From a virus, in the IMG/VR virus record IMGVR_UViG_3300012930_000001, positions 1 to 64,000 of that record: a stretch of 64,000 nucleotides of DNA. The stretch is one strand, 5' to 3'. Made by a program: the position numbers and the translations under genes. This document shows positions 4,770 through 25,187 of this stretch, piece after piece. Position 1 is the first letter of the stretch; each line of letters begins with the position of its first letter. The notes beneath the pieces are model-generated. The model had not been told where the DNA came from and ran no database searches. It saw nothing but the letters and a program-made list of their open reading frames with translations.

Positions 4770-5000
4770 TTAGCTCCAAATAATTTCGCCATGTTCAGTA
4801 AGTCCCGCAAGCACCTTATCGGTAGTAATTACCTTTGTCCGATACTCTGGCGGGCTCACCAATTCACGGACATCGCAGGAAATAAAACAGTCATCATGCA
4901 CTTCTGTCACTTCGTGAATTTTGTTCGAGTATCTACCGGCGTTCGTACGTTTATACCGGTCACCAACCTTTATATCTTTCAACTGTTTCCCAGCTTTCAT
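4770..5000 (-). CDS. Hypothetical protein (76 aa)
   Basis: Track ORF. Confidence 0.55.
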   Translation of the reverse strand: MKAGKQLKDIKVGDRYKRTNAGRYSNKIHEVTEVHDDCFISCDVRELVSPPEYRTKVITTDKVLAGLTEHGEIIWS

Positions 5001-5212
5001 TTATGGTCAGAATTGCAGTGATATCCACCGTAATACGCTCCCTCTTTGCCGAGCCCACAACCGTAAAAGCAATAATTACGGTCTTCGCAAAACTTATCTA
5101 CAGCCTTGCGGTTGTCTGCTCGGGTCCGCGCCCGGCCTAGCCATTCTGTAAAGCAACTCACTAAACCCATCAACGCAAAAGCGATGACGAACCCCACTAC
5201 TATTTGCATCAT
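4997..5212 (-). CDS. Membrane-anchored Cys-rich protein (71 aa)
   Basis: Track ORF 4997..5230. ATG 5212 forms an ATGA overlap with the glycosyltransferase stop. N-terminal TM helix. Confidence 0.5.
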   Translation of the reverse strand: MMQIVVGFVIAFALMGLVSCFTEWLGRARTRADNRKAVDKFCEDRNYCFYGCGLGKEGAYYGGYHCNSDHK

Positions 5213-5940
5213 TTGTCGAATGCCCTCCAATTTATTTTGACGTCCGGACGTCCGTCCTTTTTCATTTTCACTTGGCAGATGTGGTCACCCCACAATTCCA
5301 CCATGCGGCGGCTGGCCGCGGCTTCCTTTTCTGTTTTGTACTGGTCGTACAACCCGCCTTTATTCGAACCGTTTTTTGGAACCGCGAAAGATATCTGAGC
5401 CAGCTTTATCACCTTGTACCCTATGCTTAGAATTTGCAGCGTAAAATCCCGGTCGGATTTGAAAGGCAGTTCCGTGCGGTAGTTGACCGGCATCGCGGTG
5501 CGGATACACACGGCCACGTCACAATAACTGTTCATCACGAACGGCCGTTTGTTGCTCCAAGCATATTGCTGGTATTCGAGCCCGGCCTGGCCGATGTGGT
5601 CACCGTTCAGGAAAAACCATTCAGCGTCTTCGAGGGCCTTCTCAGGTAATTCATACGTCCACGTCTTTTCATTTTTCGTGTAGTAGAAACCTTTGATATC
5701 ATCATCCAGCATCCAGTACCAGTCGTACCCGAGTTTCCGGGCAAGCTGCAACGCGACCTGTCGAGCGTAGGCCAGCCCGCGATTGTTATACGGCAATTTA
5801 CACAGCCGGGCCGCGGGGTGATGTTCGAGATATGCTCCGTAGTCTTGGGGCTCGACAAGGACGGTGTACGACACACCCTCCAAAAGTGTGAACAGCGGCG
5901 CGTCAGGCCGTCCCTTGCTGCATACCAGTATTGGCTTCAT
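5209..5940 (-). CDS. GT-A-type glycosyltransferase (possibly TET/JBP-associated glycosyltransferase-like)
   Basis: Track ORF with AAGGAG 7 nt before the ATG. Rossmann-like N-terminus ILVCSKGR..., VLVEP..., then the acidic motif WYWMLDDDI (a DxD-type signature). Confidence 0.6.
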   Translation of the reverse strand: MKPILVCSKGRPDAPLFTLLEGVSYTVLVEPQDYGAYLEHHPAARLCKLPYNNRGLAYARQVALQLARKLGYDWYWMLDDDIKGFYYTKNEKTWTYELPEKALEDAEWFFLNGDHIGQAGLEYQQYAWSNKRPFVMNSYCDVAVCIRTAMPVNYRTELPFKSDRDFTLQILSIGYKVIKLAQISFAVPKNGSNKGGLYDQYKTEKEAAASRRMVELWGDHICQVKMKKDGRPDVKINWRAFDK

Positions 5941-6193
5941 GATTTTGCTCCTTGAGTATTTTGTCTAAGGCGGCCCGGAGTGTCTTTTGCGGGCGGTGGT
6001 CCCGGAAAGAACCGGCGACTAGCTCAGCGACCTGCCAGCCGCCCGAAAAGAACCATGTATACGTCTTGCCGCGGTGGTAAGTGATGACGTGCAACGGAAA
6101 TTCTTTACGGTCGTTTAGCACATCATCGCTGTTCAGTTTTTCCTCGAACCCGTTTTGTTTCGCGTACTCGCGCCAATGTAAATCCTCACGCAT
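5903..6193 (-). CDS. Hypothetical protein (96 aa)
   Basis: Track ORF 5903..6238. ATG 6193 is preceded by GGGAGG, with a TGATG overlap to the upstream stop. Confidence 0.55.
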   Translation of the reverse strand: MREDLHWREYAKQNGFEEKLNSDDVLNDRKEFPLHVITYHRGKTYTWFFSGGWQVAELVAGSFRDHRPQKTLRAALDKILKEQNHEANTGMQQGTA

Positions 6194-6432
6194 CAATTTT
6201 CCTCCCTGGCGGAAAGTTTGAACCGGCTGATATCGCACAGCCGCCCGCCGAGTTTACCCCACTCTGTCCAGCACGGAGTACATAGATAGCTCCGGCGTTC
6301 CGTCGACCGTCCGGAAAATCTACAGACCATCCCGGCTCGAATATTTTCCTTGCAACAAAGGCAAGTCCGGATAGCGGTCGGGACGCCCGGCTTCCATTGT
6401 TCAACGCCTACTTTTCTCGTGTAGAATGCCAT
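6193..6432 (-). CDS. Zinc-binding protein (79 aa)
   Basis: Track ORF. CLCC...C...CTPC. Confidence 0.55.
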   Translation of the reverse strand: MAFYTRKVGVEQWKPGVPTAIRTCLCCKENIRAGMVCRFSGRSTERRSYLCTPCWTEWGKLGGRLCDISRFKLSAREEN

Positions 6433-6435
6433 GGT

Positions 6436-6852
6436 TTAAAAGGGAATATCATCGTCGGTCGCGGGCGCCGGTGTTTGATAGCTGCCCGCGGCCTCGGCCT
6501 GGCTTGGCTCTCTATCTCCGTCCGACCTACTACCGATAAACTGCATATCCGTTGCAGTTACGGCTAACGTTTGACGCTCGACACCATCCCGGTCTGTCCA
6601 CGTCTCGATACCAAGGCGGCCCTCAATGAAAACCTCCTTACCCTTAACGAGATACTTCGCCGCGGCCTCGGCGGTCTTGCGCCAAAGCGTTATCTTGAAC
6701 CACGTAACCACACTTTGATATTCGCCCGATTTGTCTTTTTTCTTTTCGTTGGTCGCAATGGAAAACGTGCAGACCGCATCGCCTTGCGGGGTGTATCGTA
6801 GCTCGGGGTCTTTCCCGAGATTGCCGACCAAAATTATTTTATTGAAACTCAT
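6436..6852 (-). CDS. ssb: Single-stranded DNA-binding protein
   Basis: MSFNKIILVGNLGKDPELRYTPQG... OB-fold signature and the canonical acidic tail DDDIPF. ATG 6852 forms an ATGA overlap with the upstream stop. Confidence 0.95.
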   Translation of the reverse strand: MSFNKIILVGNLGKDPELRYTPQGDAVCTFSIATNEKKKDKSGEYQSVVTWFKITLWRKTAEAAAKYLVKGKEVFIEGRLGIETWTDRDGVERQTLAVTATDMQFIGSRSDGDREPSQAEAAGSYQTPAPATDDDIPF

Positions 6853-7235
6853 TTTTTCTTTTTGTCCCTCCGTTGATTTTCGAGCCACTGTTTTTCGGTT
6901 TGGGCGTCAACCTCATCCCAAGACTTAAATACCGGCGAATCCATTTTCAATTTGCTCGGGTCGTACTTCCCGGCTGTTATCATCACATCAGTCATGAGGT
7001 TTCGCCAGTCCGCGTTTTCGTAAAATATCAAGGCCCCGGCGCAATGCTGGCTTTCCGGCACCGCGACAAAATCGCCTCCACAGCCGTACTCATCATCCTC
7101 TTCGACTTCCGCCGTTTCGTGGCAAACAAATTCGCCGCGGGCAAAGCTTCGCAGCCTATCCGGGTCAACGTACAAACGCCCGCCGTCATTTCGGAATGGG
7201 CACGTATTACAGGGCCGGGTCATTTCATATTTCAT
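6849..7235 (-). CDS. CxTCPF-motif Cys/His protein (DUF6283-like, tentative); paralogue of 22299..22817
   Basis: Track ORF 6849..7295 starts at TTG. ATG 7235 puts PCNTCPF at the same distance from the N-terminus as in the paralogue. A second cluster is FVCHET...QHCAGAL. Confidence 0.55.
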   Translation of the reverse strand: MKYEMTRPCNTCPFRNDGGRLYVDPDRLRSFARGEFVCHETAEVEEDDEYGCGGDFVAVPESQHCAGALIFYENADWRNLMTDVMITAGKYDPSKLKMDSPVFKSWDEVDAQTEKQWLENQRRDKKKK

Positions 7236-7290
7236 TTGGTTGGTTGTAAATGGCCATACTCCATTTTCCCGCGTTTTTATTATTCTGTCA

Positions 7291-7336
7291 AACAAATAAA
7301 AACGGCGGGCCGGGTTACCAAAACTCGACTCCGCCG
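7291..7336 (-). terminator. Terminator-like hairpin plus T-run between 7360..8004 and the next gene
   Basis: Minus strand: CGGCGG-22 nt-CCGCCG followed by TTTTTATTTGTTTG. The large loop lowers confidence. A TTGACA (7291..7286)-N17-GAAAAT follows. Confidence 0.3.
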
Positions 7337-7359
7337 AAATTGTGCGCCGGGGCTATGAA

Positions 7360-8004
7360 TTACGCCGCGGTTGCAGCGGCCACGTCCGGGGCCGGGCTGC
7401 TCTTGGAAGGTTTGATCTCTTCCCGAGGTACCCACAATGTTTGCGGGCGGGCACCGGCTGCCATCTGAACAGCCACCTGCAGTTTGTTCGGGCCTACCTT
7501 GACCACGCGGCCCGAATACTTTCCTGAACCCGCCTTGGGGCTGTAAACGACCGCATCGTTAGGAATGAAGTCGGTCGCCATACGCTGGCCCGGCTTTCCC
7601 TTTTTTTCCGCCGTGGCGGAATTTTTCTTAGGGGCCGCGGTCTTCTTTGCTGTCCCGGTTCCGGTTCCGTCTCCGCCCTTCTTTGCCGCGGCTGTGGTCT
7701 TTGCGGCCCCGCTGGACGCTTTCTTTTCCTCGGTCGGAATAACGCCCTCGGTCTTGGGTGTCCAGTCCTTCACGATACGGCGAAGCTGGCTACGGGTCTT
7801 TTTGGTCGCGACCACTTTTCCGGTGGCTTCATCCGTCACGTTCCACACCTTTGCTTTGGCGTCGAACATTAGCCGGTACATTTTCCCGGTCGATTTATTC
7901 TTGATGAAAAATCCGCCGTTGTATCCCACGGCCAGGCCCGGCTTGTTTGTAGCTTTTGCTATCGCGCTCTGCTCGGGTGTTAAGGTTTCTTTTTTTTCTG
8001 ACAT
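7360..8004 (-). CDS. Lys/Ala-rich (histone H1-like low-complexity) protein with C-terminal KOW/Tudor-like segment
   Basis: Track ORF. The central part AAKTTAAAKKGGDGTGTGTAKKTAAPKKNSATAEKKGKPG is low-complexity. The C-terminus reads YSGRVVKVGPNKLQVAV. Confidence 0.65.
   Translation of the reverse strand: MSEKKETLTPEQSAIAKATNKPGLAVGYNGGFFIKNKSTGKMYRLMFDAKAKVWNVTDEATGKVVATKKTRSQLRRIVKDWTPKTEGVIPTEEKKASSGAAKTTAAAKKGGDGTGTGTAKKTAAPKKNSATAEKKGKPGQRMATDFIPNDAVVYSPKAGSGKYSGRVVKVGPNKLQVAVQMAAGARPQTLWVPREEIKPSKSSPAPDVAAATAA
7606..7621. repeat. Palindrome TTCCGCCGTGGCGGAA (copy 1)
   Basis: Read directly. Lies inside CDS 7360..8004 and encodes S-A-T-A-E. Confidence 0.9.
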
Positions 8005-8328
8005 TGCTTTAATCGCTCCTACTTTTTTAATTTGCCCGGCGTCCCAGCCGGGTGAGTTTTTGAAAACTCACTGACGCATGCTACCGGCCCGGAAAAGGTG
8101 ACTGGCCTATTCCAACGACCCTCCCTCAGTCTAACAGTGGACCTACCTATTCTGCTCATGATAGAGCAGGGAACCGACAACATACGCGAGTGAATTTTCA
8201 AAGAGCCAGGGTGCCGGGCTGCTTGGCAAGCTTTGCGTAGCGGCCCTGTCCGCAACGCGTTTCTGTAACAGCCCGGCTTTCCTTTCGGGGTAGGTGGGGC
8301 AGAGAACAAACATGAACCCGGCCCACAG

Positions 8329-8345
8329 CTTTCCTACTCGGATTT
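8329..8345. repeat. 17-nt direct repeat CTTTCCTACTCGGATTT (copy A)
   Basis: Identical to 8593..8609. Overlaps the stop codon of 8334..8567. Confidence 0.9.
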
Positions 8346-8567
8346 TCCGCCACGTCTGGCGGAAACTTTCACACAACCTCCGTGGGCGCGATAGCCGTCA
8401 ACATTTCCACACGGATTTTCCTGCTTTTCGGCAAGTGCTTTACACCGCGAACACGTCACGTTTGCCGCGTGTTTTACAACCGCCCATTTATTGCGATTTG
8501 TCAGCATCATTCCACAAAGCGGATCGTTATTTTTATCGGCAAAATGTAGTTTTAAATTCTTGTCCAT
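8334..8567 (-). CDS. Zinc-finger protein (77 aa)
   Basis: Track ORF with AAAGGAG 7 nt before the ATG. C(19)...C(40)xxC. Confidence 0.6.
   Translation of the reverse strand: MDKNLKLHFADKNNDPLCGMMLTNRNKWAVVKHAANVTCSRCKALAEKQENPCGNVDGYRAHGGCVKVSARRGGKSE
8345..8364. repeat. Palindrome variant TTCCGCCA-CGTC-TGGCGGAA
   Basis: Read directly. Same arms as the 16-bp palindrome but a longer spacer. Confidence 0.7.
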
Positions 8568-8592
8568 TTTAATCTCCTTTAAGTCTAGGCCC

Positions 8593-8609
8593 CTTTCCTA
8601 CTCGGATTT
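8593..8609. repeat. 17-nt direct repeat CTTTCCTACTCGGATTT (copy B)
   Basis: Identical to 8329..8345. Lies 26 nt upstream of the ATG at 8567. Confidence 0.9.
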
Positions 8610-8634
8610 CTCGCGGCGTCCCGCGGGAACTCAA

Positions 8635-9021
8635 TCAAGCTTTATATACGACGTGGTATTTTTCGGCCACGGCTTCCATCAACAAAGTTGTTATATCGTG
8701 GGCTCGGTCAAACATTTCAGATGGCATTTCCCGCCCGGTATGTGCATAAACCTCTTGGAACATCGACGCTAATAATCGGGCTGCATACGCATCCGCATTC
8801 TCGTATCTTTCACGGGTAATATTAGCTATTACCGGCTTCGGCATTTCTTCTAGCTTATCGGTTAAAACCATTTCGCTGACTTCCTGTCCGTTTTCTAATG
8901 TGTAAATAACATCATTAAAAAGTGGCTTTGCGTGGTGTATTTTTACTTGCTCACCCGTCTCGGTTTTATATACCGTCTGGCCTAATTTGAATTGCGGTTG
9001 CAGTCTTAATCTCTTCGGCAT
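8635..9021 (-). CDS. Hypothetical protein (128 aa)
   Basis: Track ORF 8635..9072. Its first 17 codons overlap the promoter -10, so I use ATG 9021, which is preceded by AAAGGAG. Confidence 0.65.
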   Translation of the reverse strand: MPKRLRLQPQFKLGQTVYKTETGEQVKIHHAKPLFNDVIYTLENGQEVSEMVLTDKLEEMPKPVIANITRERYENADAYAARLLASMFQEVYAHTGREMPSEMFDRAHDITTLLMEAVAEKYHVVYKA

Positions 9022-9070
9022 TTTGAATCGCTCCTTTCGTTTTTCCGGGCTGTGCCGTCCCGATGAACTC

Positions 9071-9099
9071 AATATCTCAAATGTTTATTTACTTGTCAA
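9071..9099 (-). promoter_or_regulatory. Sigma70-type promoter P1: TTGACA-N17-GATATT
   Basis: Minus strand: TTATTTTGTTGACAAGTAAATAAACATTTGAGATATT. Nearly identical to the promoters at 18426 and 31274. Confidence 0.6.
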
Positions 9100-9132
9100 C
9101 AAAATAAATGAGCAAAAGGCAGACTTTGAACG

Positions 9133-9174
9133 CAAAAACACGGCATCTAATAGCAGTTATTACCGATGCCGTGC
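9133..9174 (-). terminator. Rho-independent-type terminator after the rSAM gene
   Basis: Minus strand: CACGGCATC-17 nt loop-GATGCCGTG followed by TTTTTG. Confidence 0.5.
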
Positions 9175-9208
9175 TAAAAAATATTTTAGATTTATACGAT
9201 TTTGCGGG

Positions 9209-10093
9209 CTAATTCCGCGTTTTCTCGAACCAATCGGTTTCCAGTCCCACCCGGAACCCGGCCCGTTCCGAACATTTGTTGCACGGAATTACGGCGGCCC
9301 GGTCTTTACTTATTAGTGAGGCTCGGGCAGTGTCCAGCCGATCCCACAAAACAGATAGCGGCGTGTCTTTCACGTTGCCCACGATATGCTCTTGCTTCCA
9401 ATCATTGCAGCACAAAACAACGTGGCCCTCAACGTGGATTACTAATTCTCGAAAAGGCCGGGTACACATTTTCTGCAAGGGCTCCGTCACGTCGAACACC
9501 GTATGACCCTCCGCGCGTGCGGCCTCCACATTCACGCTTCCACCCTGGTTGTGATACCGGCGAATTATATTCGTGGGCCGGGGCGCAGCGTCGACCAAAA
9601 TTAGCTCGTGATGTTTCGGGCCGACATACCGGTAAGGGTGGGTGTTTCCGCCGTCCTCTTCAAAAAATAAGCTGGCATTTGGAAACAAGCTTTTCATGTG
9701 TTCGTATCGCGGCGTGTCGTAGCAATCGAGCATGAGAAAATTCAGGCCCGCGTCGAACATGGATTGCACAAAAGCCGGGTAGCGGTCTTTGTACTTTCGA
9801 ACGGTATCGCCGTTGCTCGTCATCATCAACTGCGCTTTTGGCAACGCACTCCGGGCTCGGGCGAAAAAGTCAATCAGGCGTGGATGGAAACTTGGCTCAC
9901 CGCGTTCCGCGAATTCTATACGCATCTTTTCCCAAACGCTGGCACCTTGCAGAATAGCCCGATAGGTTTCATCCTCCATGAAAACAAACTTATCCTTCAC
10001 CCATTCCATTTCCGGCAACGCGCAAAACGTACACCGGCGTGTACAACCACGGGTCAATTCGATTTTTACCGTATACGGTTTATGTCTTGGCAT
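9209..10093 (-). CDS. Radical SAM enzyme with SPASM/twitch-like C-terminal Cys cluster
   Basis: C17TRRC21TFC24 (CxxxCxxC). C-terminal CTRPF...HVVLCCNDW...GNV...PCNKC. Its ATG abuts the upstream TAA with no spacer. Confidence 0.85.
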   Translation of the reverse strand: MPRHKPYTVKIELTRGCTRRCTFCALPEMEWVKDKFVFMEDETYRAILQGASVWEKMRIEFAERGEPSFHPRLIDFFARARSALPKAQLMMTSNGDTVRKYKDRYPAFVQSMFDAGLNFLMLDCYDTPRYEHMKSLFPNASLFFEEDGGNTHPYRYVGPKHHELILVDAAPRPTNIIRRYHNQGGSVNVEAARAEGHTVFDVTEPLQKMCTRPFRELVIHVEGHVVLCCNDWKQEHIVGNVKDTPLSVLWDRLDTARASLISKDRAAVIPCNKCSERAGFRVGLETDWFEKTRN

Positions 10094-11092
10094 TTATTCC
10101 GGGAACTCACCCTCGAAGTCATTGAAAAGAGAATCGCCCGGCTGCCGTCGCTTCGCGCGTTCGGTTTCCTCCGATAGCGATTTGCACGCCACGATACGGC
10201 GGCGGAAATAGAAAACACAACTTAGCCGGGTCCAGTATTTCGACACACCCACCAGCGGCGTGTTGCAGTGCCACTCGTGAACGTCGACCAGCAGCACGTC
10301 ACCGTGACGCATGTTGACAGCCACACCGTACTGCGGAACCACGAATAGCCCGCCCTCGTATCGGCCCTCGCTCAGCACAGCCAGGACACCGAAACCACTG
10401 CGTAAATCACCCACGTCTTTATGCAGGGCCGTGCGCCAATTTCGGTTAACGGTAATGGTCGAGAACGCTGTACCCGAAATTATGTAGTCTGGATGGGTCT
10501 TATTGCACTCGGCAAGCTGTGCTGCGTGACGCTGGGGCGAGTTTTCTCGAAAACAGGTATCTACGGTGCGGATGAAGGGTGCGGCATCTCTAAGGGCCTT
10601 CAAATGCTTTGCGGTGAAGGCGGTCAGTCGGCAATACGGAATAGCCGGGCTCGAACGTTCAAGGGAACCGATAACCGAACTCGGGACCTCCAAGCCAAAA
10701 CTCCGCTTGGAAATGGTACCGTCCTTTTTCATCGGGTAGTACCGTGTGTCACCATGCAGGGCTCCGATAACATGCTGCTCGTGCCGGTCACCGGGTTTCA
10801 GTCCGAGGGTTGATAGCCGTCCGGCCGCCGTACCGCGGTTGCCTCCACCCTGCGCTGCCTTGAATAGAACCGGGAACGCGCGGGCCGCGTGCTTTACGCT
10901 GACTACGTTGCGGCGAAAGTGAATCAAGGGACTGCCGTCCGCCCGGAATATATCGGCGTCATGGTCAATAAGCAGGTCGTAAGCCTCGTCACCCAAAAAC
11001 TCACCGTTCAGCGCGTCAATGGCTTCGTCATCGCAGACCTTGTCGACTGTGTAGGTTTTCACTTTTTCTTTCCGCCCAGTTCCCGCATACAA
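10094..11092 (-). CDS. 2OG-Fe(II) dioxygenase, TET/JBP-like (subfamily tentative)
   Basis: H224-K-D226 ... H272EWH275 ... R289LS within beta-rich segments (GFGVLAVL, GLFVVP, GDVLLVDV, LSCVFYF). An alternative GTG start at 11062 forms a GTGA overlap with the upstream stop. Confidence 0.65.
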   Translation of the reverse strand: MYAGTGRKEKVKTYTVDKVCDDEAIDALNGEFLGDEAYDLLIDHDADIFRADGSPLIHFRRNVVSVKHAARAFPVLFKAAQGGGNRGTAAGRLSTLGLKPGDRHEQHVIGALHGDTRYYPMKKDGTISKRSFGLEVPSSVIGSLERSSPAIPYCRLTAFTAKHLKALRDAAPFIRTVDTCFRENSPQRHAAQLAECNKTHPDYIISGTAFSTITVNRNWRTALHKDVGDLRSGFGVLAVLSEGRYEGGLFVVPQYGVAVNMRHGDVLLVDVHEWHCNTPLVGVSKYWTRLSCVFYFRRRIVACKSLSEETERAKRRQPGDSLFNDFEGEFPE

Positions 11093-11850
11093 GCTATCAC
11101 AGTATCGGTGACGTTATCGGTTTTGAAACGCTCTGACAGCTTCATGGCCAACTCGATGAACTCGGCGTGGACCTCTTGCGAAAGAATGAGGGCTATTTGT
11201 TTCGTGTTCGATATTGCGGCGTGAGCCTGCATACCTCCACCGAATCCGCCCGGCGTTTCCTCGTGAATATCAAAGTCGCCGCCCGGTACTTCTTTCTCGA
11301 GGCGTTTTACAATTTCGTCCACGTCCTCATCCGAGTACCCGGTTGCGTCGAGGCTGCCCGGCGTGTCTTTCATCATCTGCAAAATCTCAGCCATCAGCGC
11401 TTCGTCATATCCGCCCAGTTCGTTGATACGATTCAGGGCCGCGGCTGCTGGGGCCTCGTCTACCTCGGATAGATTTACGCCGTCCACCGTGGGTACGAAC
11501 CATTTTTCACCCACTGCTACAACACCCTTCGGAGGCTCGAACACTGACCCAGTGCCCAAGGGTTTACCGGCATCTATCCAGTCCTCTCTCATGGCCTGCA
11601 ATGCCTCAACCCGGCCGTTCCCGTCGTAGTTCTTTCCGGTCTGGCGGTTGATACCAATAGGGTCGATGACACCGAAACGGCGCAAAGACTTTTGTGTTTC
11701 CGGGATGGCGTGCCGTTTGAAGTTTTTCTCAAGCGGTAGTATCAGAGCAACGTCCACATATCGAATATGCAGGCGGTGTTCGGCGGATTGTATTTCAAGG
11801 GGTTCGGGAGCGGTCGCTGAAATTGGTGCGGTCTTGGGTTTGGTGGCCAT
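11059..11850 (-). CDS. ParB N-terminal-domain (ParB/Srx-like) protein without methyltransferase domain
   Basis: IRYVDV..ILPLEKNFKRH...SLRRFGVIDPIGIN...GNGRVEAL, then ALNRINELGGYDEALMAEIL...ATGYSDEDVDEI. The latter is a linker I know from ParB-DNA methylase fusions. Confidence 0.7.
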   Translation of the reverse strand: MATKPKTAPISATAPEPLEIQSAEHRLHIRYVDVALILPLEKNFKRHAIPETQKSLRRFGVIDPIGINRQTGKNYDGNGRVEALQAMREDWIDAGKPLGTGSVFEPPKGVVAVGEKWFVPTVDGVNLSEVDEAPAAAALNRINELGGYDEALMAEILQMMKDTPGSLDATGYSDEDVDEIVKRLEKEVPGGDFDIHEETPGGFGGGMQAHAAISNTKQIALILSQEVHAEFIELAMKLSERFKTDNVTDTVIACMRELGGKKK

Positions 11851-11889
11851 AGTTTTTGAGCAGAATCATACACCGGCCCGGCGTGGATA

Positions 11890-12171
11890 TCAATAGGGCC
11901 GTATTTCATAAAGGTGGTAAACAATGTGGTCGGGTAATTTGAAAGCTGAAATGAAATGAGCAACGTTGCCTTCGCCGGGGTCAAGTTGGTGCCGTGCCCG
12001 TATCATCGCAAACTGTCGGTAAACTTTATCCTCTTCGTCGTTGGGGTGAAATTCATAGTACAGCCGGGAGGACTCCGAATCACAAAACACCGACCGGAGT
12101 ACGGCACGTTTGCGGATGAACAGCGAAAATGTTTCTTGCCAGGGAATGTCGATAGAGTGAATGACTAACAT
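11890..12171 (-). CDS. Hypothetical protein (93 aa)
   Basis: Track ORF 11890..12288 trimmed to ATG 12171, just after the upstream stop. Confidence 0.5.
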   Translation of the reverse strand: MLVIHSIDIPWQETFSLFIRKRAVLRSVFCDSESSRLYYEFHPNDEEDKVYRQFAMIRARHQLDPGEGNVAHFISAFKLPDHIVYHLYEIRPY

Positions 12172-12173
12172 AT

Positions 12174-12404
12174 TCAATAAAGTTTTTTGAACTGCGGGAA
12201 CGGGTTTTGATTCGCTACCAGTGGTAAATTTGTTTTCGCCGCGGCCCGGCGTGCTGTGGCCACTACAGAGCGGAGGCATGAAAGACAACTAACCTGAGAC
12301 AACGCCGCGTGGTACTCCACGAATAATCGAATCTCGCGCCCGCAATATGTCTCAGCATTTAAGTGGTCAGCTAGGCGGCCTTTGGGATAATGAACTTTGT
12401 TCAT
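12174..12404 (-). CDS. Hypothetical protein (76 aa)
   Basis: Track ORF 12174..12476. ATG 12404 forms an ATGA overlap with the upstream stop. Confidence 0.5.
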   Translation of the reverse strand: MNKVHYPKGRLADHLNAETYCGREIRLFVEYHAALSQVSCLSCLRSVVATARRAAAKTNLPLVANQNPFPQFKKLY

Positions 12405-12739
12405 TTGAATTTCAGCAACCGTTCCTTTTTGAGGATGTCCGCGGCCATCGTGAACTCGATAAAACACAACTCGCAAAACTGGTCGAGTTCCCCGCGCATT
12501 CGATTTAATTGCTGCAAGCTGTCGGCTATTATTATCGGAAACATCGGGGTGCTTTTTACACCCACGATTTTCCCGTTGAGAAAAATAGGCTCGTCATGGA
12601 GGGCGAGAGTTTCGCCGGACTCCAAACGCAGGGCCGCGTCAAACACGTGCCACTCGGCGGCGTAGATAGACTGCTTTCCGAAAAACAACCGCTGGCTCAC
12701 GGTCTTGGGGTCGATGTTCAAAGCCGCTATATCGCTCAT
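12401..12739 (-). CDS. Hypothetical protein (112 aa)
   Basis: Track ORF with a 4-nt overlap to the ASCH gene. Confidence 0.6.
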   Translation of the reverse strand: MSDIAALNIDPKTVSQRLFFGKQSIYAAEWHVFDAALRLESGETLALHDEPIFLNGKIVGVKSTPMFPIIIADSLQQLNRMRGELDQFCELCFIEFTMAADILKKERLLKFK

Positions 12740-13317
12740 ACCTTTTTGAATTTAATGCACCACAGCCACGGGTTTTCCTCCCATGTGTTTTTGGAACCGT
12801 GTAACGCCGTCCAAGATATTTTGAAAGAAAACGCGTCCGGCTGGCCCTCGGCTCGGGCGTCGGCGTCGGATATCTCCGCAAGCTGTTCGCACCAAACGTC
12901 CGTGATAATCAGCCGGGTCTTACACGCTATCCTCGGCATGTGAATTGACGGTATCCACTTCACCGGATAATCCGGGTCGACACTCTGGCGGGCTGGGTAG
13001 ATTCTTTCTGCTTTGTGCTTAAAGTTCGGGTTGATATTGAACCCGGTTTTCTCGCGTACCCAAAGGATGCCGCCCGGCGCACCGTAAATGCAGTGGCAGT
13101 CGAAATAATCAAACTCACTTTCGCCCGGCCACACGGCTACGACACAGCCCTTGTATCGCTTCTCAATTATCGACGGCGAATTACCCGGCCCCGGCTGCAA
13201 CTGCATCACCCGGCGCGTCTGTGTTTTCGTACCGGCCTCGATTTTCTGCACGTTCGGCACGGTGAAGATGATTGGTTTTTCAGTGGTGTCGATAGCCACC
13301 GTTGGTTTAGAGGTCAT
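12736..13317 (-). CDS. ASCH (PUA-like) domain protein
   Basis: IEAGTKTQTRR...ILWVRE...MPRIACKTRLIITDVWCEQLAEISDADARAEG is the pattern typical of phage ASCH proteins. ATG at 13317. Confidence 0.65.
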   Translation of the reverse strand: MTSKPTVAIDTTEKPIIFTVPNVQKIEAGTKTQTRRVMQLQPGPGNSPSIIEKRYKGCVVAVWPGESEFDYFDCHCIYGAPGGILWVREKTGFNINPNFKHKAERIYPARQSVDPDYPVKWIPSIHMPRIACKTRLIITDVWCEQLAEISDADARAEGQPDAFSFKISWTALHGSKNTWEENPWLWCIKFKKV

Positions 13318-13609
13318 GGTCTTTTTTGAATTCCTCCAAGGTCTTTGTCTGTAGGTGTGAAAACCCTTCCGCGTCTCGCTCAAACACACGGTAGTCCGGG
13401 TAAATACTCATCAATTCCATTGTGAATTTTTCAAAATGTGGACCCATCTTTTGCAGAAAATCCGGCGCGTCTTCGTCTATCTTATCCATCGCATCGCCAA
13501 ATTTCATATACGACCTCATCAGCCGTCCGGCCCGTTTACATAGGCCGTTAAATTCCGCGGCGTCCTCTGAGTTTTTGGCAATAATAATTACCGGTATGAT
13601 ATCGCTCAT
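13307..13609 (-). CDS. Hypothetical protein (100 aa)
   Basis: Track ORF. Confidence 0.6.
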   Translation of the reverse strand: MSDIIPVIIIAKNSEDAAEFNGLCKRAGRLMRSYMKFGDAMDKIDEDAPDFLQKMGPHFEKFTMELMSIYPDYRVFERDAEGFSHLQTKTLEEFKKDHDL

Positions 13610-13887
13610 CCTCTATCCCTCAAGTGCGGGCGTAGGAGCCCGTCTTCGTATCGACCATTAAGGCCTGCGGCCAGTGTTTGTAACGTATTCACCGTCACCG
13701 CTGCCTGGGCGGTTGCTTTAGTACCATCCGGCAACTGCACTGTAAAACAAAATAGGGCCGACGCCCGGCCCGACTCCATACCAACGTCTTTCGTGATTAT
13801 TCGCAGGTCGCCGCCCTCGGGCAGTGAGTTAGCTATCACCTTATCGTACTCGGCCACGTCATTCAGCAATAGCCTGACTTTTTCCAT
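13606..13887 (-). CDS. Hypothetical protein (93 aa)
   Basis: Track ORF. Confidence 0.6.
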   Translation of the reverse strand: MEKVRLLLNDVAEYDKVIANSLPEGGDLRIITKDVGMESGRASALFCFTVQLPDGTKATAQAAVTVNTLQTLAAGLNGRYEDGLLRPHLRDRG

Positions 13888-14084
13888 AATCCTAAATACC
13901 TCCGCATTAAAATAATTGCATCGTAGGGTGTCCGCGCCGGGGCCATAATGTACTCAGCCGTCACCGGCGAAATTGTCAGCGGGCGCGTCTCACCATCGTA
14001 GTAGTAAACCCGCTGGTCTATACTCCAAACCTCATGCCCGAAACAATACGCGTGTCTTTTGATAGATGGGATGGGGTTGTACAT
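13863..14084 (-). CDS. Hypothetical protein (73 aa)
   Basis: Track ORF. Confidence 0.55.
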   Translation of the reverse strand: MYNPIPSIKRHAYCFGHEVWSIDQRVYYYDGETRPLTISPVTAEYIMAPARTPYDAIILMRRYLGLWKKSGYC

Positions 14085-14192
14085 AAAATAAACGGTGGGG
14101 CGGCCATTCTCGCCTCAGTTCACAAACCCCACCGCTGTCAGCGGCCCGACTCGCCTACGAGAGTATGCATCGTAACGCCGGGCCGCGAACAC

Positions 14193-14294
14193 TCAGTCTT
14201 TTCCTTGCTTGACCTTTGAAATATAAAACCCAAGACCGCCCAAAATTAAAACCACGGCGGTAACGATAGTGAAAATCCAAGCTGTCGTACTCAT
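14193..14294 (-). CDS. Small membrane peptide (33 aa)
   Basis: Own translation MSTTAWIFTIVTAVVLILGGLGFYISKVKQGKD, with GGAGGG 6 nt before the ATG. Confidence 0.35.
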   Translation of the reverse strand: MSTTAWIFTIVTAVVLILGGLGFYISKVKQGKD

Positions 14295-14313
14295 AATTTC
14301 CCTCCGTCAAAAT

Positions 14314-14388
14314 TGGCTTCCAGAGTAGGACTCGAACCCACATACGCGGGTCCAAAACCCGCTGTGCTACCAATTGCACCATCTGGAA
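14314..14388 (-). tRNA. tRNA-Gln (anticodon UUG), CCA encoded
   Basis: Manual cloverleaf on the reverse complement. Acceptor TTCCAGA/TCTGGAA; D arm GTGC-AATTGGTA-GCAC; anticodon arm GCGGG-TTTTGGA-CCCGC; variable loop GTAT; T arm GTGGG-TTCGAGT-CCTAC; discriminator G; CCA. The U1:A72 pair and G73 match bacterial tRNA-Gln identity features. Confidence 0.9.
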
Positions 14389-18454: not shown

Positions 18455-18527
18455 TACTGTGCAGGCAGTCTTGGTCGGGACACCGGGGCTGCTGAACAAA
18501 AATCAAAAATTAGGAGCGATAGCAAAT

Positions 18528-19667
18528 ATGTCACACGATTTAATCAAAAATTCTTTCACCGGTAAGTACGAGATAATGACCCGAGGCACAGCCTGGCACG
18601 GTCTTGGTCAAGTGGTCGAAGACGCCCAAACGTGGGGAGAGACAATGGAAAAGGCCGGGCTCAATTGGACAGTTTCCAAACATCAGCAAAAGTCGGTTCT
18701 CACCGGCGAACTCATTGACAGTTACGATATATACCGCGATGATACCAAGGGCTTTTTGGGCAACGTCGGTGCGGATTACAACCCCATCCAGAACATCGAG
18801 CAGTTCAAATTCGTGGATGAACTTTTGGAGCGTGAGAACGGCGCACACTACGAGGCAGCCGGGGCACTCGGCGGCGGCCAGCGGGTATTCGCTTTGGCCA
18901 ACCTGTCGGACGCGTTCGAAGTGGTCGACGGCGACCGTCACGAAAACTACCTTCTCTTTTCCAACAGCCACAACGGTAGTCAGGCAGCCCGCGTTTTTCT
19001 CACCTCGGTCCGCGTAGTTTGTGCAAACACTCTGCGGGCTGCCTTGTCCGAATCTTCGAGCCGGGCCGGTAAGGCACGAAAGAACGGCGTCGATTCTGAC
19101 ATCATCAAAATTCGTCACACCAAATCCGCACAGGCCCGCCTCGGTGCTGCCAAAAATATCATCATGACGGCCCACGACAGCGTCAAGAGCCTCCGCGAGA
19201 AAATGCAGATATTGGCCGGTAAGCAAATGACGAAAGCCAACTACGAGGCAATCGTCAACCGGCTGTTTCCCATAAAGGTCAAGGATGGCCAAGACGCCCC
19301 GGCTGCCGCCTCTGTCACACGCCGCGACAACGTCCTGACGGAAATTCTCAACCTGTACGAAGGCAACGACAACAACGCGTTCCCGGAAATTCGCGGTACT
19401 GCCTACAATTACCTGAATGCCATCACCGAGTATGTTGACCACTATCGCCCGGTAGTCATGACGGATGCGAAAGCTGGCTGGACGGTCGAGCAGGTTCGAG
19501 CAAACAACGCCCTGTTCAACGGCGGCGCGGAATTGAAAGAGTCGGCCCTCGATATCATTCTAGCTGAGACAATGAACAACCCGAGCGTATCCCGGTCAAC
19601 GAAGTACGCTGCGGGCCGCGATACAAACGGGGCCGCCGTCCTCAACGATATCCTGTCCAAAAACTAG
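18528..19667 (+). CDS. DUF932 (phage/plasmid-like TIGR03299-type) protein
   Basis: Track ORF 18459..19667 starts at GTG inside the promoter. ATG 18528 is preceded by TAGGAG. TRGTAWHGLG..., GGGQRVFALANL, FSNSHNGSQAARVFLTSVRVVCANTL. Confidence 0.8.
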   Translation: MSHDLIKNSFTGKYEIMTRGTAWHGLGQVVEDAQTWGETMEKAGLNWTVSKHQQKSVLTGELIDSYDIYRDDTKGFLGNVGADYNPIQNIEQFKFVDELLERENGAHYEAAGALGGGQRVFALANLSDAFEVVDGDRHENYLLFSNSHNGSQAARVFLTSVRVVCANTLRAALSESSSRAGKARKNGVDSDIIKIRHTKSAQARLGAAKNIIMTAHDSVKSLREKMQILAGKQMTKANYEAIVNRLFPIKVKDGQDAPAAASVTRRDNVLTEILNLYEGNDNNAFPEIRGTAYNYLNAITEYVDHYRPVVMTDAKAGWTVEQVRANNALFNGGAELKESALDIILAETMNNPSVSRSTKYAAGRDTNGAAVLNDILSKN

Positions 19668-24311: not shown

Positions 24312-25187
24312 ATGGGAAAAGATTCAACGATTCAATTTTGTACGTCGACGTGGAATCCGTGGCAAGGCTGTATAAAGGTTTCGCCCGGCTGTAAATTCTG
24401 TTACATGTACCGCGATAAAGCACAGTACGGGCAAGACCCTATGGACGTACACCGGTCGAGCCTCCACACTTTCCATCTACCGTTGAGGCTGGCAAAGAAA
24501 GGCCCGGAGGTTATTTTCACTTGCTCGTGGTCGGACTGGTTTATCGACACAGCGGACCCGTGGCGGGATGATGCCTGGAAGATTATTCGAGACACTCCTG
24601 AACACTTCTATTTGATTTTTACCAAAAGAAGCGAAAGAATAAACGCCTGCCTACCCGCCGACTGGGGAAACGGATACGAAAACGTAATGTTAGTTGCTAC
24701 GGCTGAGAATCAGGAAATGGCTGACAAACGCGCGTCGGAACTGGTACAGGTTCCCGCGGCGTGGCGCGGGCTATCCTTGGAACCACTCTTGGGGCCGGTC
24801 GACGTGAGCAAATATTTGGCTATGGTTTGGGGTCAGTGGAACAATGGAGCCATCGGCTGCAAGCCTGCAATTAACTGGTTGGTGATAGGTGGAGAGAGCG
24901 GGAACGAAATGGGACAGTACCGCTACCGGCCCTGTGAAATGAACTGGATAAACCAGCTTGTCGAACAGGGTACGCGGGCCGGGGTGTCGGTGTTTGTAAA
25001 ACAGATGGGCACTTTCATTGCCAAGCGTTTGAAAATGGCAGACCGGCACGGCGGCGATATCGAAGAGTTTCCGCCCGTCCTCGCGATTAGACAGCACATC
25101 CCTGCCGTACAAAGGCGGCTGGATGAAAAGGAGGCGCTAAAAATTAATGACGTCAATAGACCTACGCAGAACAACCCACTTTTTTGA
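24312..25187 (+). CDS. Phage Gp37/Gp68 family (DUF5131) protein
   Basis: TWNPWQGCIKVSPGCKFCY...FTCSWSDWF...IFTKR... is the characteristic N-terminal three-Cys motif of this family. Confidence 0.75.
   Translation: MGKDSTIQFCTSTWNPWQGCIKVSPGCKFCYMYRDKAQYGQDPMDVHRSSLHTFHLPLRLAKKGPEVIFTCSWSDWFIDTADPWRDDAWKIIRDTPEHFYLIFTKRSERINACLPADWGNGYENVMLVATAENQEMADKRASELVQVPAAWRGLSLEPLLGPVDVSKYLAMVWGQWNNGAIGCKPAINWLVIGGESGNEMGQYRYRPCEMNWINQLVEQGTRAGVSVFVKQMGTFIAKRLKMADRHGGDIEEFPPVLAIRQHIPAVQRRLDEKEALKINDVNRPTQNNPLF

Follow-up and report, generated by a model that had tools for sequence, protein, structure and literature searches.

What is the task of a radical S-adenosylmethionine (rSAM) enzyme whose gene is translationally coupled to that of a DNA-directed dioxygenase? 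The question is raised by the 64,000-nucleotide (nt) stretch of IMG/VR record IMGVR_UViG_3300012930_000001 (the window, to which all coordinates refer unless another locus is named). Its sequence contains three tightly coupled minus-strand genes, encoding a ParB-like protein (gene 1), a dioxygenase (gene 2) and an rSAM enzyme (gene 3; Table 1). We propose, with a probability of about 0.6, that the locus serves to hypermodify thymine after replication, as a module in which thymine would be converted to 5-hydroxymethyluracil (5hmU), the 5hmU glycosylated, and the carbohydrate oxidised by the rSAM enzyme. A preliminary description of these genes had already suggested that ParB-like protein, dioxygenase and rSAM enzyme together hypermodify DNA, and it was right in outline, with the qualification that the ParB/dioxygenase pair belongs to a known system.

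The ParB-like protein and the dioxygenase

On sequence evidence the product of gene 2 is a TET/JBP-family 5-methylpyrimidine dioxygenase (5mYOX) with an intact HxD…H…R site. It scores 89.1 bits against Pfam Tet_JBP (PF12851; cut-off 34.9), covering profile positions 10-163 of 164, and matches phrog_24024 with an E-value of 5e-67. Residues H214, D216, H262, H265 and R279 in the numbering of the 322-residue protein (H224, D226, H272, H275 and R289 in that of a 332-residue version) are invariant in an alignment of 38 homologues of 37-68% identity. A family profile aligns the HxD motif, the distal histidine of e-w-H-g-N-t-P and the segment R-I-S-L-V-F-Y with the motifs of human TET2; the profile was needed here, a single-sequence search of PDB sequences having returned nothing useful. 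A conserved tail of 29 residues follows the invariant C293 in this family.

Pairs of this kind have been characterised as ParB-dependent thymine dioxygenases that make 5hmU (O'Toole et al., PNAS 2026; PMC13229309). The cognate ParB, encoded next to the 5mYOX, is required for thymine oxidation on double-stranded DNA; it joins a nucleotide-binding domain at the N-terminus to a C-terminal domain, the protein as a whole having no obvious DNA-binding domain, and its closest structures are the ParB proteins of M. xanthus and C. crescentus (PMC13229309). ParB-dependent 5mYOXs have no neighbouring C5-methyltransferase, and glycosyltransferases are their commonest co-occurring domain (31%); a C-terminal extension past the last conserved cysteine is confined to this subclass, of which genes for a kinase, an amino-acid:DNA transferase (AADT) and a GATase are listed as typical (PMC13229309).

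The product of gene 1 matches PHROG ParB-like families 620 and 723 (E 4e-21 and 2e-18). In its N-terminal half it also resembles the ParB portion of fusions between ParB and a methyltransferase (phrog_498; P0165). A Pfam search returned no match of any kind, ParBc included, and single-sequence and family-profile searches of PDB sequences gave nothing useful. In an AlphaFold2 (AF2) model (pLDDT 75.5) an α/β N-terminal domain (about residues 29-145) and a helix-helix segment (150-187) are followed, across a disordered linker at 189-220, by two helices at the C-terminus (225-260). The best Foldseek matches of this model are the CTP-binding ParBs 6sdk, 7bnr, 7bnk and 7bm8, together with Noc and KorB. 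The match to 6sdk, the B. subtilis ParB-CDP complex, has an E-value of 1.6e-4, while 7bnr and 7bnk are from M. xanthus and 7bm8 is from C. crescentus; the alignments span about 170 columns and may take in a remnant of the ParB middle domain. The motif DGNGR (residues 76-80), located where ParB proteins have their arginine patch, is invariant among gene 1 homologues, and so are GGYDEAL and TGYSDEDV across the ParB-like family. No methyltransferase domain was found by the PHROG search, in the AF2 model or with Foldseek. The model thus describes gene 1 as a protein of the ParB-CTPase fold with a ParB/Srx-type N-terminal nucleotide-binding domain, and by analogy it is a putative ParB-like activator of the dioxygenase.

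The correspondence with the published pairs includes gene order and domain architecture. In clade C1 5mYOX176/ParB176, as in the window, the ParB-like gene lies immediately upstream of the Tet_JBP gene and is co-conserved with it. The layout of the gene 1 model appears to match the description of ParB176, with its succession of N-terminal nucleotide-binding domain, helix-helix segment, disordered linker and C-terminal helical domain, and for gene 1, too, the M. xanthus and C. crescentus ParBs are among the closest structures. Like the published subclass, the window has no C5-methyltransferase nearby and has a glycosyltransferase in the neighbourhood. Unlike it, the genome lacks the typical kinase, AADT and GATase genes throughout and couples a BtrN-like rSAM gene translationally to the dioxygenase.

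The pairing itself recurs. Homologues of gene 1 (37-58% identical) and of gene 2 were found on contigs of equal size in at least seven cases (53973, 21274, 13781, 11447, 9898, 3299 and 2865 bp). In all three of the nearest TET contexts examined a gene of about 245-290 amino acids overlaps the TET start. In the two of them with DNA available the ParB profile recognises this gene, at locus L041 (E 2e-109) and, weakly, at L042 (E 2.5e-10), and it does the same for the gene upstream of TET at L006. Abutting genes are ordinary in phages, and the signal above chance is this conserved synteny with homologues elsewhere rather than the abutment itself. A TET relative of 44% identity sits with an AADT, an FAD oxidoreductase, an acetyltransferase (GNAT) and a P-loop kinase, a PaMx11-like thymidine pathway and classic cargo of thymine hypermodification. 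By analogy the ParB/dioxygenase pair fits the published ParB-dependent thymine dioxygenase subclass, the match being judged by its description, and we consider it highly probable that the two genes form a ParB-activated module converting thymine to 5hmU.

Much of the preliminary description of genes 1 and 2 holds. It had read gene 2 as a TET/JBP dioxygenase from its H-x-D…H/H…R-x-S residues, which the 89.1-bit match, their invariance and the TET2 alignment bear out. It had also recognised in gene 1 a ParB N-terminal domain and a GGYDEAL…TGYSDEDV linker with no methyltransferase domain behind them, in agreement with PHROG, the model and the invariance of these motifs. It suggested 'targeting' as the role of the ParB-like protein, where the published role is that of an activator needed on double-stranded DNA, and its 'unknown chemistry' does not apply to the pair, which matches a published subclass (PMC13229309). 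The logic of ParB, dioxygenase and TAGT is already in print, and the installation of a hydroxymethyl handle on thymine by ParB and dioxygenase is known biology.

The gene content of the phage bears on both the substrate and the later steps. An ENA contig reached via the capsid protein (k141_3988546; 72,143 bp) supplies 8 kb missing from the window (L046:1449-9450) and joins the window end to its start, so that the genome is complete and is circular or circularly permuted. These 8 kb encode the small and large terminase subunits, a portal protein and unknowns, with no Pfam matches on record; the window is that of a phage and encodes DnaB, SSB, DUF932 and DUF5131 proteins and an RNase T-like exonuclease, its structural module lying at 38-64 kb. 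Megablast of positions 5000-14000 against 50,697 GenBank phage records produced no match. A DNA_methylase scan of 29 open reading frames (ORFs) and scans for PCQ/ENV motifs found no C5-methyltransferase in the complete 72.1 kb genome, which makes thymine the likely substrate of the dioxygenase as far as the sequence can tell; the absence noted in the preliminary description for the window, and the thymine substrate drawn from it, thus extend to the whole genome. Searches by tblastn with AADT, DSPc and kinase seeds returned nothing in the window or the remaining 8 kb, no dUMP hydroxymethylase was found in either, and the only Walker A motif in the window is that of DnaB, no P-loop kinase having been recognised. 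The genome therefore lacks the pairing of 5hmU DNA kinase and AADT that marks thymidine hypermodification pathways of the M6, ViI and PaMx11 type, although relatives of its rSAM gene do occur in such cassettes.

The GT-A enzyme pointed out in the preliminary description proves to be a TET-associated glycosyltransferase (TAGT; PF20691; Table 1). The gene shares the strand of the TET gene, 4.2 kb downstream of it and about 3.2-3.3 kb downstream of the rSAM gene, an arrangement kept, with equal relative position, in the related phage L006 (60% identity), and TAGT-like genes accompany the rSAM family in three further lineages (L008, L043 and L045). By analogy it is predicted to glycosylate 5hmU. 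ParB, dioxygenase, rSAM and TAGT are, to judge by sequence, the sole recognisable DNA-modification genes of the genome.

The radical SAM enzyme and its genomic company

The product of gene 3 scores above the cut-off with both Pfam Radical_SAM (PF04055; 36.3 bits against 29.5) and SPASM (39.7 bits), a model that also matches twitch domains. The motif C17-x3-C21-x2-C24 is invariant across 24 sequences of the rSAM family. So are five C-terminal cysteines, C210, C228, C229, C271 and C274, rather than the seven of the SPASM motif, and these are enough for one auxiliary cluster and not for two. Searched against PDB, the family profile matches BtrN across both domains (E 8e-19), followed by SpeY (7.5e-4) and the peptide epimerase YydG (2.5e-3), and it aligns C210, C228, C271 and C274 with four cysteines of the C-terminal twitch region of BtrN, which we take to be the ligands of its auxiliary cluster. 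BtrN is likewise the top Foldseek match (E 3.9e-10; TM-score 0.73 normalised to the target; about 17% identity) of an AF2 model with pLDDT 81.6 and pTM 0.84; behind it come CteB, MoaA, anSME, PqqE and SpeY (the last with E 3e-4). Profile and model together indicate that gene 3 encodes a twitch-type rSAM enzyme with one auxiliary [4Fe-4S] cluster and that BtrN is its closest characterised relative.

BtrN is the 2-deoxy-scyllo-inosamine dehydrogenase of butirosin biosynthesis, and BtrN and SpeY both turn a secondary alcohol on an (amino)cyclitol into a ketone. They share with gene 3 the CxxxCxxC cluster and a single auxiliary cluster, and in BtrN also a comparably compact size (about 250 residues against 294). 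Gene 3 differs from BtrN in its low identity, in an insertion at about residues 140-205, in the extra invariant C229 and in being encoded by phages within DNA-modification clusters rather than in aminoglycoside biosynthesis clusters. The CxxxCxxC motif and SPASM/twitch-like cysteines seen in the preliminary description therefore stand as family assignments, while a full SPASM domain does not, the enzyme being of the single-cluster twitch type. Among the profiles it had named, Tet_JBP, Radical_SAM and SPASM were all recovered but ParBc was not, Pfam being blank for gene 1; structure prediction with fold search gave a ParB fold for gene 1 and a BtrN-like fold for gene 3.

The rSAM family, which comprises 28 clusters at 90% identity and is known from metagenomes only, is nested in a larger set of relatives, with about 330 representatives when the limit is E <= 1e-30. 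We collected the genomic context of 13 dereplicated lineages, 30-81% identical to the window protein and including the lineage of the window itself, and all 13 sit in a 5hmU hypermodification cluster (Table 2). By lineage count the companions are DSPc (10), 5hmU DNA kinase (10), AADT (9), TAGT (4) and dUMP hydroxymethylase (3). The window enzyme is 57%, 52% and 49% identical to the proteins of L001, L003 and L005, all from AADT contexts; identities of this order suggest a shared reaction, and the four enzymes probably catalyse the same one. Membership of the rSAM enzyme in a 5hmU hypermodification pathway is thus very likely. This upholds the preliminary description in its choice of the rSAM enzyme as a partner in DNA hypermodification; of its TET-rSAM pairing, the placement in hypermodification clusters stands, whereas the adjacency of the two genes is peculiar to one lineage.

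Table 2. Gene order around the twitch rSAM gene in 13 phage lineages
Lineage	Gene order
Window, L006/7	ParB – TET – rSAM … TAGT
L001/2	SAP-domain protein – rSAM – 342-aa protein (homologue of the L003 GT-B-like protein) – AADT – DSPc – 208-aa protein – kinase – DUF2284
L003/4	Ino1 – rSAM – 338-aa weakly GT-B-like protein – AADT – DSPc – HMUDK – HMUDK_hel
L005	SAP – rSAM – FkbM methyltransferase – AADT – DSPc … kinase
L008/9	rSAM – AADT – DSPc – DSPc-like – kinase – (second rSAM::TAGT fusion)
L010	rSAM – (1 kb) – AADT – DSPc – kinase
L011	Ino1 – rSAM – AADT – DSPc – kinase – HMUDK_hel – dUMP hydroxymethylase
L012	Ino1 – rSAM – AADT – DSPc – kinase – dUMP hydroxymethylase
L013/14	ParB-like – methyltransferase-like – rSAM – AADT – DSPc – kinase – second rSAM
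L015-17	rSAM – AADT – DSPc – kinase – dUMP hydroxymethylase
L043	(second rSAM::TAGT) – SIS isomerase – rSAM – TAGT-like
L044	DSPc – rSAM – kinase
L045	second rSAM … three tandem twitch rSAMs – TAGT – PIG-L deacetylase

Carbohydrate or cyclitol genes recur beside the rSAM gene: the myo-inositol-1-phosphate synthase homologue Ino1 in L003, L011 and L012, a SIS isomerase in L043, a PIG-L deacetylase in L045, an FkbM methyltransferase in L005, and the weakly GT-B-like protein of L003 with its homologue in L001. Ino1 at the head of an AADT/DSPc/kinase cassette hints at a cyclitol decoration of thymidine. Searched against PDB, the DSPc partner resembles a generic atypical dual-specificity phosphatase, a result that does not separate DNA, sugar-phosphate and protein substrates, and the GT-B-like partner has no match. 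A 38-sequence TET profile run over the loci found TETs solely in the window, L006/L007, L041 and L042. Candidates for a hidden TET beside rSAM in the AADT cassettes were discarded: the neighbour of about 335 amino acids in L008 is itself an AADT, and the 340-residue neighbours in L001 and L003 show no TET similarity. The ParB-TET module and the rSAM gene thus behave as two mobile elements drawn from a single combinatorial pool of genes, and the phage of the window joins a post-replicative source of 5hmU to rSAM and TAGT without the kinase/AADT branch.

No mention of radical SAM or SPASM enzymes occurs in the accounts of the ParB-dependent dioxygenases (PMC13229309) and of phage TET systems (PMC8256090) or in a glycosyltransferase preprint (10.1101/2023.12.21.572611), and a literature search linking either enzyme type to hypermodification, to 5hmU or to a glycosyltransferase brought up nothing relevant. 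As far as we have found, the BtrN-like twitch rSAM enzyme is a recurrent and apparently undescribed component of 5hmU hypermodification. Against GenBank phages, tblastn with the rSAM protein gave only matches of 21-23% identity, in Campylobacter phages. In one of these, vB_CjeM_WX1 (L040, record positions 109957-121688), distant relatives stand amid several rSAM genes, an amidinotransferase and an aminotransferase; we considered transferring a function from this cluster and rejected it as too distant. Another distant relative, on an IMG/VR contig, lies near a carbamoyltransferase gene (L032:12759-14507). These relatives of L032 and L040 are 21-27% identical to the window protein, and their clusters may belong to other nucleic-acid modification pathways.

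Some of the loci are of interest in themselves. A second, unrelated rSAM family of about 440 amino acids (Table 1), absent from the window and without phmmer similarity to M6 gp53, is fused to a C-terminal TAGT domain in L008 (721 aa) and L043 (709 aa), and such a fusion of a radical SAM enzyme to a DNA glycosyltransferase seems noteworthy in its own right. L045 carries three tandem twitch rSAM paralogues (L045:4585-9055), mutually 38-50% identical and 30-34% identical to the window enzyme, ahead of TAGT and PIG-L deacetylase genes, and looks like a multi-step sugar-tailoring cluster. In L013 (positions 6045-7935; likewise in L014) a 310-residue ParB-like protein (5mYOX-ParB profile, E 5e-18) is encoded upstream of the rSAM-AADT cassette although a TET gene is missing there, and the 265-residue ORF between it and the rSAM gene has the look of a D12-class adenine methyltransferase, from its FGWFGGK…DPPY motifs.

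Proposed pathway and competing explanations

On double-stranded phage DNA the ParB-like protein would, by homology to the characterised class, activate the Fe(II)/2-oxoglutarate dioxygenase, which would oxidise thymine to 5hmU. To judge from its family and context, TAGT would then add a sugar to the 5hmU hydroxyl, giving a base-J-like nucleotide. In a third step, suggested by fold and comparative genomics, the rSAM enzyme would tailor this 5hmU-derived hypermodification by BtrN/SpeY-like chemistry: the 5'-deoxyadenosyl radical would remove hydrogen at one of the carbinol carbons in the carbohydrate (in related phages, in a cyclitol), an electron would exit via the auxiliary cluster and the hydroxyl would become a ketone, yielding an oxidised glycosyl-5hmU. 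We propose carbohydrate oxidation because BtrN and SpeY are the nearest relatives and because carbohydrate and cyclitol genes recur beside the rSAM gene. Taken by itself, this dehydrogenase chemistry is a tentative prediction from sequence and model, at odds well below even; as to its timing, we lean slightly towards a sugar already attached to DNA over a free sugar precursor. In the Ino1 lineages glucose-6-phosphate could be converted to inositol-1-phosphate by Ino1, to inositol by DSPc and to an inosose by the rSAM enzyme, with the derived amine transferred by AADT, a speculative route since no aminotransferase is encoded nearby.

The predicted logic is that of base J in kinetoplastids, where a TET/JBP dioxygenase (JBP1/JBP2) oxidises thymine in DNA to 5hmU, which the base-J glucosyltransferase then O-glycosylates (PMC13229309, introduction), a part that here would fall to the GT-A-like enzyme. 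The system of the window differs in being that of a phage and not of a eukaryote, in the extra rSAM step that is predicted, and in its small dioxygenase, which by analogy would be activated by ParB rather than equipped with a J-binding or SNF2 domain. The phage clusters of C5-methyltransferase, TET and glycosyltransferase that make 5-hydroxymethylcytosine (5hmC) likewise proceed by post-replicative TET oxidation to a hydroxymethyl handle for a glycosyltransferase, and ParB genes have been noted in their neighbourhoods too (Burke et al., PNAS 2021; PMC8256090). In the window, by contrast, there is no C5-methyltransferase, the predicted substrate is thymine and not 5-methylcytosine (5mC), and an rSAM partner is added. 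To our knowledge, M6 gp53 is the only rSAM enzyme for which a part in installing a DNA modification is known so far. This isomerase acts in the hypermodification of thymidine in DNA (Lee et al., NAR 2021; PMC8989533) and is, like the family described here, a radical SAM tailoring enzyme within a 5hmU-based cluster, beside AADT and kinase genes. It differs from the window enzyme in its length (480 aa), its resemblance to spore photoproduct lyase and its lack of a twitch/SPASM domain, and phmmer with M6 gp53 gave no match among all ORFs of the window and the studied loci.

Several observations count against our proposal. The only universal companion in the rSAM contexts is 5hmU and not a sugar gene, and in the minimal cassette of L015-L017 no sugar gene is recognisable, so that the shared rSAM substrate could be 5hmU or its phosphorylated form instead of a carbohydrate. 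An identity of about 17% to BtrN is low, and twitch/SPASM enzymes catalyse many reactions. The isoelectric points (pI) of the rSAM family range from 5.5 to 9.2, with no consistent DNA-binding charge signature. TET stands beside rSAM only in the lineage of the window (the window and its 81%-identical relative L006/L007), and the three nearest TET relatives examined carry other cargo and no rSAM gene. TAGT, finally, lies beyond the terminator-like hairpin and five other genes, its link to the operon being its family name and its recurrence elsewhere. The sugar-less cassette, the universal 5hmU and the distant TAGT keep two rivals serious. In the first, which we hold to be unlikely, the rSAM enzyme acts on the modified base in DNA, taking hydrogen from the 5-CH2-X methylene of 5hmU or a derivative; one possibility is an anSME-like oxidation of 5hmU to 5-formyluracil, another a rearrangement like that of M6 gp53, and the outcome would be a handle for the glycosyltransferase and AADT routes alike. 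Such a role would suit 5hmU as the one element common to all contexts, whether TET or dUMP hydroxymethylase supplies it, as well as the cassette without a sugar gene, the translational coupling to a DNA-acting dioxygenase, the presence of anSME (which oxidises -CH2OH to an aldehyde) among the fold matches and the precedent of M6 gp53 on hypermodified thymidine in DNA (PMC8989533). It sits less well with BtrN and SpeY, the best relatives, which are small-molecule cyclitol/sugar dehydrogenases, with the absence of sequence similarity to M6 gp53 and with the variable pI; moreover, TET/JBP enzymes are themselves able to oxidise 5hmU further (PMC13229309), and the hydroxyl consumed in making 5-formyluracil is one that the kinase or glycosyltransferase would also need.

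The second serious rival, which we regard as rather unlikely, is that the rSAM enzyme never touches DNA and makes a free small-molecule donor (for instance a sugar in keto or amino form, an inosose, a sugar nucleotide) that TAGT here, and AADT elsewhere, attaches to activated 5hmU. BtrN and SpeY do act on free (amino)cyclitols, sugar-phosphate enzymes are adjacent elsewhere (Ino1, overlapping the rSAM start in L003, L011 and L012, and the SIS isomerase of L043), a DSPc phosphatase is a constant partner, and the rSAM family has no basic charge signature; yet no other gene of sugar-nucleotide or cyclitol biosynthesis was recognised in the genome of the window, no aminotransferase is seen in the AADT cassettes, and one product would have to serve both a glycosyltransferase dependent on nucleoside diphosphate sugars and an amine-dependent AADT. 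Two further explanations differ in kind and are improbable. The dioxygenase might act on 5mC made by a host methyltransferase, with glycosylation of 5hmC as in published phage TET/C5-methyltransferase systems: clade A and B phage TETs oxidise 5mC (PMC8256090), characterised thymine dioxygenases accept 5mC in vitro (PMC13229309), and TAGT relatives glycosylate 5hmC in some phages according to the phrog_842 annotation. The ParB-linked subclass is, however, the thymine-specific one (PMC13229309), the complete genome yielded no C5-methyltransferase even in the motif scans, and relatives of the window TET sit with the AADT and kinase of thymidine machinery; we judge a 5mC substrate quite improbable. 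An incidental placement, with the rSAM enzyme serving as a maturase of RiPPs (peptides made by the ribosome, then modified post-translationally) or of proteins, as a viperin-like nucleotide-modifying enzyme or as a cofactor enzyme, is at least as improbable. SPASM/twitch enzymes are best known as peptide maturases, gene 3 has weak matches to CteB, YydG/EpeE, PqqE and viperin, and distant relatives (22-27% identity) occur in general replication modules without recognisable modification genes. All 13 closer lineages, though, are in 5hmU cassettes, usually with the rSAM gene overlapping that of AADT; no precursor-peptide-like gene was noticed beside rSAM, and BtrN is far ahead of the peptide-modifying matches (E 8e-19 against 2.5e-3). 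Gene context and this margin led us to reject the RiPP-maturase reading.

Gene arrangement, accompanying features and biological meaning

The arrangement of the three genes is as previously described, with no intergenic space: the GTG at 11062..11060 shares three bases with the TGA stop of the ParB-like gene in a GTGA overlap, and the dioxygenase TAA directly abuts the rSAM ATG. What had been taken for an ATG-started dioxygenase ORF is in its longest form an ORF beginning with TTG at 11092, without an upstream in-frame ATG. The true start is almost certainly, on sequence grounds, the GTG at 11062, because the ENA gene call is 322 amino acids long and the N-terminal consensus of the homologues (314-325 aa) fits from this codon.

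Table 1. Coordinates and properties of the features discussed in the text
Feature	Position	Strand	Properties
ParB-like gene (gene 1)	11059..11850	-	263 aa; ATG start; TGA stop 11061..11059
Dioxygenase gene (gene 2)	10094..11062	-	322 aa from GTG 11062 (probable start); TAA stop 10096..10094
rSAM gene (gene 3)	9209..10093	-	294 aa; ATG at 10093
Terminator-like hairpin and T-run	9134..9173	-	9-bp GC-rich stem, then UUUUU; closes the three-gene unit
Sigma-70-like promoter match	11865..11893	-	TTGATA-17-TATGAT; 10/12 matches; just upstream of ParB-like gene; weak feature
Promoter-like site	9071..9099	-	10/12 matches; past the hairpin
TAGT (GT-A-like)	5209..5940	-	243 aa; PF20691, 71 bits (cut-off 27.5); phrog_842, E 3.5e-25
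Lys/Ala/Gly-rich protein	7360-8004	-	214 aa; no family match; between rSAM and TAGT
phrog_874 protein	12736-13389	-	217 aa; just upstream of the operon region
tRNA-Gln (anticodon TTG)	14314-14388	-	overlaps 75-aa ORF 14155..14382
DUF932 protein	18459-19667	+	E 3e-47
DUF5131 (phage Gp37/Gp68) protein	24312-25187	+	E 2e-52
Ino1 homologue	L003:6890-8008; L011:2406-3485; L012:8650-9753		directly upstream of the twitch rSAM gene, whose start it overlaps; E 4.6e-37 with Pfam Inos-1-P_synth (L003)
Second rSAM family	L008:11495-13660; L043:4330-6459; L013:11145-12509; L045:3084-4394		about 440 aa; Pfam Radical_SAM only

The hairpin and T-run said to close the unit are also present. A stem formed by CACGGCAUC (9173..9165) and GAUGCCGUG (9147..9139) is followed by UUUUU at 9138..9134, with a minimum free energy of -23.9 kcal/mol and z = -3.15 against shuffles; a simple terminator scan did not pick it up because the loop is long. 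The fresh promoter reported behind it fares less well: a 10/12 site does lie past the hairpin, but promoter-like matches in the region are no commoner than in shuffled sequence (8 observed, 8.4 expected). The match upstream of the ParB-like gene is likewise only suggestive, and since such matches are at chance level the three genes may simply belong to a long leftward transcript.

Among the neighbouring features, the Lys/Ala/Gly-rich protein has a homologue of 44% identity at the same position in L006 (12266-12907) and could be DNA-binding or histone-like. The ORF overlapped by the tRNA-Gln gene is, by reason of that overlap, probably not a gene. No tie to the modification system was found for the DUF5131, DUF932 or phrog_874 proteins.

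Against restriction and CRISPR nucleases, phage DNA is protected by post-replicative thymine hypermodification, a process that also yields enzymes useful in the chemistry of DNA labelling and sequencing. The ParB-activated thymine dioxygenase was defined only in 2026, and the steps downstream of it are largely unmapped. The locus described here presents a minimal gene set in a complete genome, with activator, dioxygenase, rSAM enzyme and one glycosyltransferase, and being free of the kinase/AADT branch it offers a clean experimental entry point to the role of the rSAM enzyme. The DNA of this phage probably carries a new kind of modified thymine. That the BtrN-like enzyme might stand for a branch of thymidine hypermodification in phages that has so far gone undescribed, as the first radical SAM dehydrogenase in DNA modification, is a bolder suggestion that we advance with clear reserve; it would entail a keto-sugar or oxidised glycosyl-5hmU here and an inosose- or inosamine-type cyclitol on thymine in the Ino1/DSPc/AADT phages. 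Should it be true, phage DNA would bear aminoglycoside-like cyclitol or oxidised-sugar decorations not seen before, and a carbohydrate or cyclitol dehydrogenase of this kind would represent a new class of chemistry in natural DNA.

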